Notes under the pieces: generated by a model
What the model was told of the DNA's origin: nothing
Seen by the model: only the letters and a program-made list of their open reading frames with translations
Databases searched by the model: none
Source of the DNA: Pseudomonadota bacterium
GTDB taxonomy: Bacteria; Pseudomonadota; Alphaproteobacteria; Micavibrionales; Micavibrionaceae
Assembly: GCA_039182445.1 (NCBI GenBank)
Contig: JBCDCD010000001.1
Coordinates: 1-25,810, forward strand
DNA: 25,810 bases
Direction of reading: 5' to 3'
Translations under genes and position numbers: made by a program
Shown here: positions 9,358-9,432 of the stretch, in pieces
Layout of the letters: every line of letters starts with the position of its first letter
Numbering within the stretch: position 1 is the first letter of the stretch

Positions 9358-9432
9358 TCCTCGGTAGCTCAGTGGTAGAGCAGGTGACTGTTAATCACTT
9401 GGTCGCTGGTTCGAATCCGGCCCGAGGAGCCA
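9358..9432 (+). tRNA. tRNA-Asn (GTT), probable integration site
   Basis: Acceptor TCCTCGG/CCGAGGA, D arm GCTC..GAGC, anticodon GTT at 9390-9392, T arm GCTGG-TTCGAAT-CCGGC, discriminator G, CCA. 75 nt. Confidence 0.97.

Follow-up and report, generated by a model that had tools for sequence, protein, structure and literature searches.

A large serine recombinase reading frame that overlaps the CCA end of tRNA-Asn at a probable prophage junction

We analyzed a stretch of 25,810 nt (the window), which is the entire contig C1 of a 1.17-Mb metagenome-assembled genome (MAG; 70% complete), and found that it very probably holds the tRNA-proximal junction (attL) of a prophage inserted at the 3' end of a tRNA-Asn gene by a large serine recombinase. 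At this junction, the recombinase reading frame runs through the CCA end of the tRNA on the opposite strand and stops over the anticodon. The same register is found across the recombinase family, and relatives that could be compared in both states differ, between the free and the integrated form, in the residues that follow one invariant tryptophan.

The overlap of integrase and tRNA-Asn in the window

To the left of the junction, Pfam and ARAGORN identified host genes (an outer-membrane efflux protein and a DUF2497 protein) and a tRNA-Cys gene (9210-9283, + strand; ARAGORN). The host tRNA-Asn(GTT) gene (9358-9432, + strand; ARAGORN) carries its anticodon at 9390-9392 and an encoded CCA at 9430-9432, and forms the attB-side arm of the junction. 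It is the only tRNA-Asn of the MAG, in which all 14 of the 14 tRNA genes found encode their CCA, and it is 100% identical to the copies in five genomes of the same genus. Because tRNA-Asn is identical genus-wide, its sequence cannot separate a host from a phage origin.

Converging on this tRNA is the intact integrase gene (9391-10962, - strand; ORF, Pfam, and PHROG), which encodes a large serine recombinase of 523 aa. Residues 13-163 match Resolvase (PF00239, E=1.2e-17) and residues 190-280 match Recombinase (PF07508, E=1.3e-15), the PHROG 95 integrase profile matches the protein at 7.6e-63, and R18 and S20, which belong to the catalytic domain, hardly vary across the aligned family. Pfam gave no match to a zinc-ribbon domain in the window integrase at E<=1e-3. 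In an AlphaFold model of a homologue, P0047, a beta region at 298-342 is followed by long helices at 361-465, and C302 is the sole residue of this region that is invariant in the family alignment. A small gene (10953-11294, - strand; ORF list) overlaps the integrase start and is part of one unit with the integrase; it had no Pfam or PHROG match. From 11295 up to the contig end at 25810 (- strand), PHROG scans identified prophage early and replication genes, a module with a RuvC-like resolvase, a primase/helicase, a Cas4-type exonuclease, a helicase, and a Sak4-like annealing protein.

A sequence-only reading of this DNA had described an integrase without a stop before the tRNA, its last 13 residues being encoded by the antisense of the tRNA 3' half. 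The ORF at 9391-10962 and the ARAGORN call agree with that description, and the overlap is a direct observation. The translated C-terminus is WLLGPDSNQRPSD, followed by the stop. Its Trp511 codon, TGG (9430-9432, - strand), is the reverse complement of the tRNA CCA, as the reading had also noted, and is the family-invariant anchor of what follows: a tail of twelve codons, LLGPDSNQRPSD, and a TAA (9391-9429, - strand), antisense to tRNA positions 35-73. Read on the opposite strand, 9391-9393 gives the TAA, which does lie over the GTT anticodon as claimed, covering two of its bases (9391-9392). On the evidence of same-element pairs in relatives (see below), the tail at 9391-9429 would be host DNA, with its first one or two codons possibly excepted.

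The position of the stop on the anticodon, to which the reading had drawn attention, is incidental, because the frame is fixed by CCA being read as Trp. In this frame, a tRNA of standard length always has one codon over positions 35-37, and GTT followed by A37 gives TAA. The same anticodon TAA ends 11 of the 17 in-frame tRNA-Asn cases, the remainder stop earlier, and the ends over other tRNAs vary.

A terminator scan found none 3' of the integrase stop. Directly after the tRNA CCA, we observed TTTTT (9433-9437), with TTCTTC in many relatives, a T run that is present because conserved Glu/Lys codons precede the Trp. The original terminator of the tRNA must have been displaced to the far junction, as in two related loci, L096 and L093.

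The far junction of the window prophage lies beyond the contig end, a point that we counted against the reading of an attL. Exact and mismatch patterns, short-word BLAST, a phage-arm regular expression, and tblastn with known free-form tails, applied to the window and the MAG, revealed no second junction, neither a 3' piece of tRNA-Asn nor an attR-like site. The locus is present in a single sequencing run, as Logan contigs. Among the Logan contigs of this source run (~8x depth), there were no attP or attB joints, only tRNAs of other organisms and one strain variant. A comparison of 40 relatives did not yield a nameable ancestral empty attB because what follows the tRNA-Asn CCA is different DNA in each genome; the position is a hotspot that holds other elements.

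A family-wide register on the CCA end

A protein search with the window integrase returned 446 homologues at E<=1e-3. Among the best 120 of these 446, ~58 end in Trp plus a peptide that resembles tRNA antisense, typically x-x-x-x-D/E-S-N, whose DSN corresponds to the T-loop read in reverse complement; in 42 the tail is a different, conserved one, and 10 stop within three residues. Trp511 was invariant in two alignments, of 48 and 42 homologues. We examined 160 homologous loci, 80 from genome assemblies and 80 from metagenomes, and observed a convergent tRNA at the recombinase 3' end in 50/80 and 54/80 loci, respectively. In every one of the 50 tRNA-bearing genome loci, the first base of the Trp codon falls exactly on the last base of the tRNA. 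A combined recount gave a convergent tRNA in 109 of the 160 loci; CCA is read in frame as Trp in 97 of these 109, as in the window, and in another frame in 8. The overlap of integrase and tRNA is no chance event; it is a family rule, and the register behind it is observed directly.

Counted from the Trp, the integrated tails span 3 to 63 codons (about 2 to 62 residues), with a median of 13. The targeted tRNAs have 14 amino-acid identities, and the family was found in Rickettsiales, other Alphaproteobacteria, Legionellales, gut and soil metagenomes, and complete phage genomes. Mapped on a tree of 104 family members, the target amino-acid identity changes at least 38 times (minimum possible 13; shuffled mean 69.7). 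The window enzyme belongs to a well-supported clade of 10 members on this tree, mostly with tRNA-Arg targets, and a second, distant clade of the family is also found at tRNA-Asn in the host genus (G002 and G005). The family is a natural example of retargetable serine-integrase specificity, with the universal CCA end and T-loop serving as site centre and outer motif.

Two features of the family were counted against our reading of the window. The nearest relatives of the integrase, at 67-71% protein identity, are all in the integrated form, and the viral, genome, and metagenome contigs scanned held no free-state relative above 55% identity. In addition, many of the 42 homologues with a non-tRNA tail, among the best 120, are on chromosomal contigs.

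Crossover and arms in relatives, and other readings of the junction

Relatives in both states show directly where the two forms part. We set the T of TGG as index 0, with positive values running into the tRNA. L012 comes from a complete viral genome of 34.8 kb that is bounded by direct terminal repeats, L014 from a provirus. The two are 100% identical across 11,612 nt up to TGGCTG and then continue into a phage arm and a tRNA-Gln, respectively; this free/provirus comparison, which draws on the end types of the records, comes from a sister subfamily, because Trp-frame viral contigs stop short at the tRNA. L010, from another free genome with repeated ends, likewise has a non-tRNA tail. L160 and L159, both of the Trp-frame subfamily, match at 100% over 4,000 nt up to TGGCGG, after which one reads a tRNA-Ser (tail RTG, then stop) and the other a 30-aa tail. 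The same pattern of divergence was observed for L172/L163, with 7 shared nt, and for L023/L019, with 12 shared nt.

The attP and attL forms stay identical as far as +5 in L012/L014 and L160/L159, and as far as +6 in L172/L163. Two further loci have a candidate second junction: L096 carries a 27-bp repeat across TGG, with a mismatch at -5 and a host terminator hairpin before it, and L093 carries a 10-bp repeat, from -1 to +8, in the same arrangement. Bounded by the three same or near-identical pairs in both states and by these two candidate second-junction loci, the crossover in relatives lies between about -1 and +5, which places it at tRNA positions 71-76 or on the first base downstream of the tRNA. 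Transferred by homology, this zone would put the crossover of the window at about 9427-9433. We infer that the window element follows the rule of its relatives, and any exact crossover dinucleotide would likewise be inferred: the symmetry of the motifs is centred at TGG in the window subfamily, an index of +4 could fit the L012 subfamily, and with two possible symmetry centres the dinucleotide is therefore not fixed. The sequence-only reading had suggested that a crossover within 9394-9432 could swap the integrase tail. By homology, this holds: relatives cross over at the 3' extreme of the tRNA, within the proposed range or 1 nt past it, and their free and integrated tails differ.

At L096, which is from a Candidatus Enterousia MAG, we also observed three upstream copies of the site core within 4650-5800 (at 4680, 5573, and 5758). 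The same host terminator hairpin comes before two of them, and phage-type arms with the 5-nt shift described below come after two. The 5' half of the tRNA-Gln recurs as a perfect 37-nt copy 4.6 kb downstream, at 16123-16159. Together, the core copies and the tRNA-Gln half suggest tandem or remnant insertions at one tRNA.

We compared the arms of the four pairs (L012/L014, L160/L159, L172/L163, and L023/L019) and observed that a (T)TCGAAC-like T-loop motif lies exactly 5 nt farther from TGG in the phage arm in 4/4. In L012/L014, both arms have GCTGGA at one and the same index, and in the phage arm five additional bases then precede TTCGAAC. In serine integrases, the motif of the zinc-ribbon domain (ZD) is 5 bp nearer the centre in attB than in attP (PMC3783163), and the 5-nt shift seen directly in the relatives matches this published attP/attB rule. 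The 42 non-tRNA tails are translations of such a phage arm; their DNA resembles the 3' end of a tRNA in which GGTTCG is spaced from CCA by 21 nt and not by 16 nt. In the window, the T-loop TTCGAA of the tRNA arm (9410-9415, + strand; index +17 to +22) occupies the place of the shifted motif. The phage-side arm (9433-9461, - strand), read from the sequence and from an alignment of 63 sites on the Trp codon, coincides with the last nine integrase codons before the Trp. If TGG is the centre, TTCGTAAA at 9452-9459 (index -27 to -20) mirrors the T-loop motif 5 bp farther out. However, TTCGTAAA doubles as code for a semi-conserved Phe-Val, so DNA-level and protein-level constraint are inseparable here and the match has little independent weight.

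We propose that, in this family, the attachment site of the phage lies inside the recombinase gene itself. One attP arm would be formed by about the last nine codons before the invariant Trp, whose TGG would pair with the tRNA CCA at or beside the crossover, and the other by the codons after the Trp, which would imitate the tRNA acceptor and T-loop with 5 extra bp. On integration, the tRNA would stay whole, and the recombinase ORF would be joined to the tRNA antisense up to the first in-frame stop; at tRNA-Asn, this would be a TAA to which the anticodon contributes T35 and T36 and the next position A37. The end of the integrated enzyme would then be filler encoded by the host, and after excision the phage would encode another tail. 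Integration state would thereby be written into the enzyme's own sequence. For annotation, the C-terminus of such an integrase beside a tRNA is not to be taken as the native protein end, and prophage borders of the CCA-register type carry almost no direct repeat.

An integration of the classical kind, with the tRNA 3' half carried in attP, a crossover in the anticodon loop or T-loop, and a phage-encoded tail that is unchanged between the states, is highly improbable for this junction. Such an attP is the rule for tyrosine integrases (PMC4383910), and G009, of the same genus, does have a 51-nt tRNA-Asn 3' fragment ~780 bp downstream of its tRNA-Asn, left by another element; yet the stretch with this fragment is without a recombinase of the window integrase's family. 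The phage arm parts from the tRNA after 6 to 12 nt in 4/4 related pairs, and no tRNA-Asn 3' fragment lies elsewhere in the window or the MAG. The fragment in the complete genome G009 (C1:228258-229165; L114:4260-5166) extends from the anticodon stem to 4 nt past the CCA beside an intact tRNA-Asn; another element, of the tyrosine type, probably left it as a scar.

We also regard it as unlikely, if somewhat less so, that the insertion is a fixed, decaying remnant and the read-through tail the scar of a dead recombinase. The contig carries just the early half of a prophage, and the lack of excision products among the Logan contigs of the source run is compatible with such a remnant, but the integrase ORF is intact with R18 and S20 conserved, and the neighbouring phage genes are all open. 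Moreover, a second strain copy differs at 36 sites, nearly all of them third codon positions, which argues for purifying selection. The contig of this strain (same run, depth about 9) connects to the same tRNA and matches the window exactly over 9374-10084; its 36 differences lie within 10085-10435 and are mostly spaced by multiples of three. Small indels were seen around 10126-10201, and the contig looks like a recombinant mosaic. An attL made by a CCA-register integrase remains our preferred reading of the junction.

The exchanged tail and comparison with known systems

Under this preferred reading, the exchange of tails could in principle be a functional switch: a conserved C-terminal peptide of the free phage would be needed for integration or act as a degradation tag, and its absence from the prophage form would alter stability or bias. 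We consider such a role possible but doubtful. The non-tRNA tails share W-[RL]-x-L-[VI]-D-x-[LF]-R-T-[DN]-x-x-x-R-x-x-I-I across Bacteroidota, Planctomycetota, and Proteobacteria, a motif that reaches beyond the ~9 codons that an att arm would constrain, and Rfam found no RNA gene beneath these tails. However, the only residues close to invariant are L512, D514, R517, and T518 (P0047 numbering), and all four are inside the DNA arm. AlphaFold predicted two helices in the free-form tail of homologue P0047, with pLDDT dropping from 71 to 50 over the tail, a low confidence that leaves the prediction little weight. Free-form tails of other subfamilies are conserved helices that often end in -AA (L004-L010, L172, and L177), an ending found in just 2 of the 42 tails of the subfamily nearest the window. 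The integrated tails, for their part, are arbitrary, with a length set only by the first stop in the tRNA antisense. Integration is known to alter an element's own protein in the Mx8 IntP/IntX pair, SSV-type integrases, and the BPs repressor, but these precedents are all from tyrosine recombinases.

The -AA endings of free-form tails were observed in L004-L010, L172, L177, L206, and L225, as ...AIAA, ...HLAA, ...KVAA, ...ADAA, and ...RFAA, and are reminiscent of ssrA-like degradation tags. The sequence-only reading had raised a built-in state switch and an antisense RNA to the tRNA, both of them speculative. We tentatively picture integration as a putative toggle on the integrase, an idea that we hold to be less probable than its converse. 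The free-phage peptide might license or limit integration (perhaps through an -AA tag in some subfamilies), the prophage filler might differ in stability or excision, and head-on transcription of the tRNA with antisense pairing might damp the integrase of the lysogen.

The myxophage Mx8 has the end of a tRNA gene as its target. Like the window family, it has an integrase ORF that extends across attP (PMC4383910), with IntP and IntX forms; unlike the window integrase, its Int is a tyrosine recombinase. SSV-type archaeal integrases similarly have the site within the integrase ORF and tRNA targets (PMC7253208, PMC4383910), but they are tyrosine recombinases whose gene is split in two pieces on integration. 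In the window integrase, only the residues after Trp511 are replaced, and the recognised domains are all in one ORF. Pfam found serine-recombinase domains only in the window protein, which is thus no member of the Mx8 or SSV type, a class set by a tyrosine recombinase. In mycobacteriophage BPs, attP is inside a coding gene and integration alters the C-terminus of its product (PMC4557955); there, the altered gene is that of a tagged repressor, which integration truncates, and the integrase is of the tyrosine type, whereas in the window family the altered protein is the serine integrase itself.

The A118/LI-type integrases of Listeria (Rutherford et al. 2013, PMC3783163) are of the same class as the window enzyme, with Resolvase and Recombinase domains, and their attP and attB differ in the manner seen in the window's relatives, the outer recognition motif being 5 bp farther out in the phage arm. 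Unlike A118/LI, the window family targets the CCA end of tRNAs and has the universal tRNA T-loop as its outer motif, and its attP lies inside the last integrase codons so that integration alters the protein. According to a 2014 reference work on islands borne by tRNA genes, no serine integrase is known to use such genes as targets (PMC4383910), and tRNA goes unmentioned in a large survey that covers serine integrases together with their sites. The tycheposons of Prochlorococcus are, like the window element, marine integrative elements at tRNA genes, and 27/937 of them carry a large serine recombinase in place of one of the tyrosine type (bioRxiv 10.1101/2020.12.28.424599). The consulted portion of that preprint describes no ORF-attP overlap, CCA register, or tail swap. 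Our literature search found no paper describing a CCA-register, attP-spanning architecture for serine integrases.

Several of the chromosomal copies with a non-tRNA tail deserve a separate description. An intact free-form tail (W-R-x-L-V-D-x-L-R-T...) with no tRNA at its end was observed on chromosomal contigs of Singulisphaera sp. PoT (L030:11510-11602 and L035:11483-11575) and of Bacteroidota (L037, L039, L041, L045, L048, and L070). The Singulisphaera element is present as two ~6.1-kb copies, 95% identical and reaching ~290 bp past the stop, and free-form copies in two Kordia genomes have similar DNA on both flanks. Of the chromosomal free-form copies, only the Singulisphaera element has a second site copy nearby: ~450 nt inside the left boundary of each of its copies (L030:6193-6209 and L035:6903-6912), we observed an inverted partial site core, TGGCGATCC, followed by TTCGA at phage-arm spacing. 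Finally, a recombinase in a Rickettsiaceae MAG (L025:11500-11704) ends in WRTREESNL and a stop, which resembles the antisense of a tRNA-Arg 3' end. ARAGORN called no tRNA at this end, an intact tRNA-Asn lies ~90 nt further, and the end may be a tRNA fragment from an earlier event.
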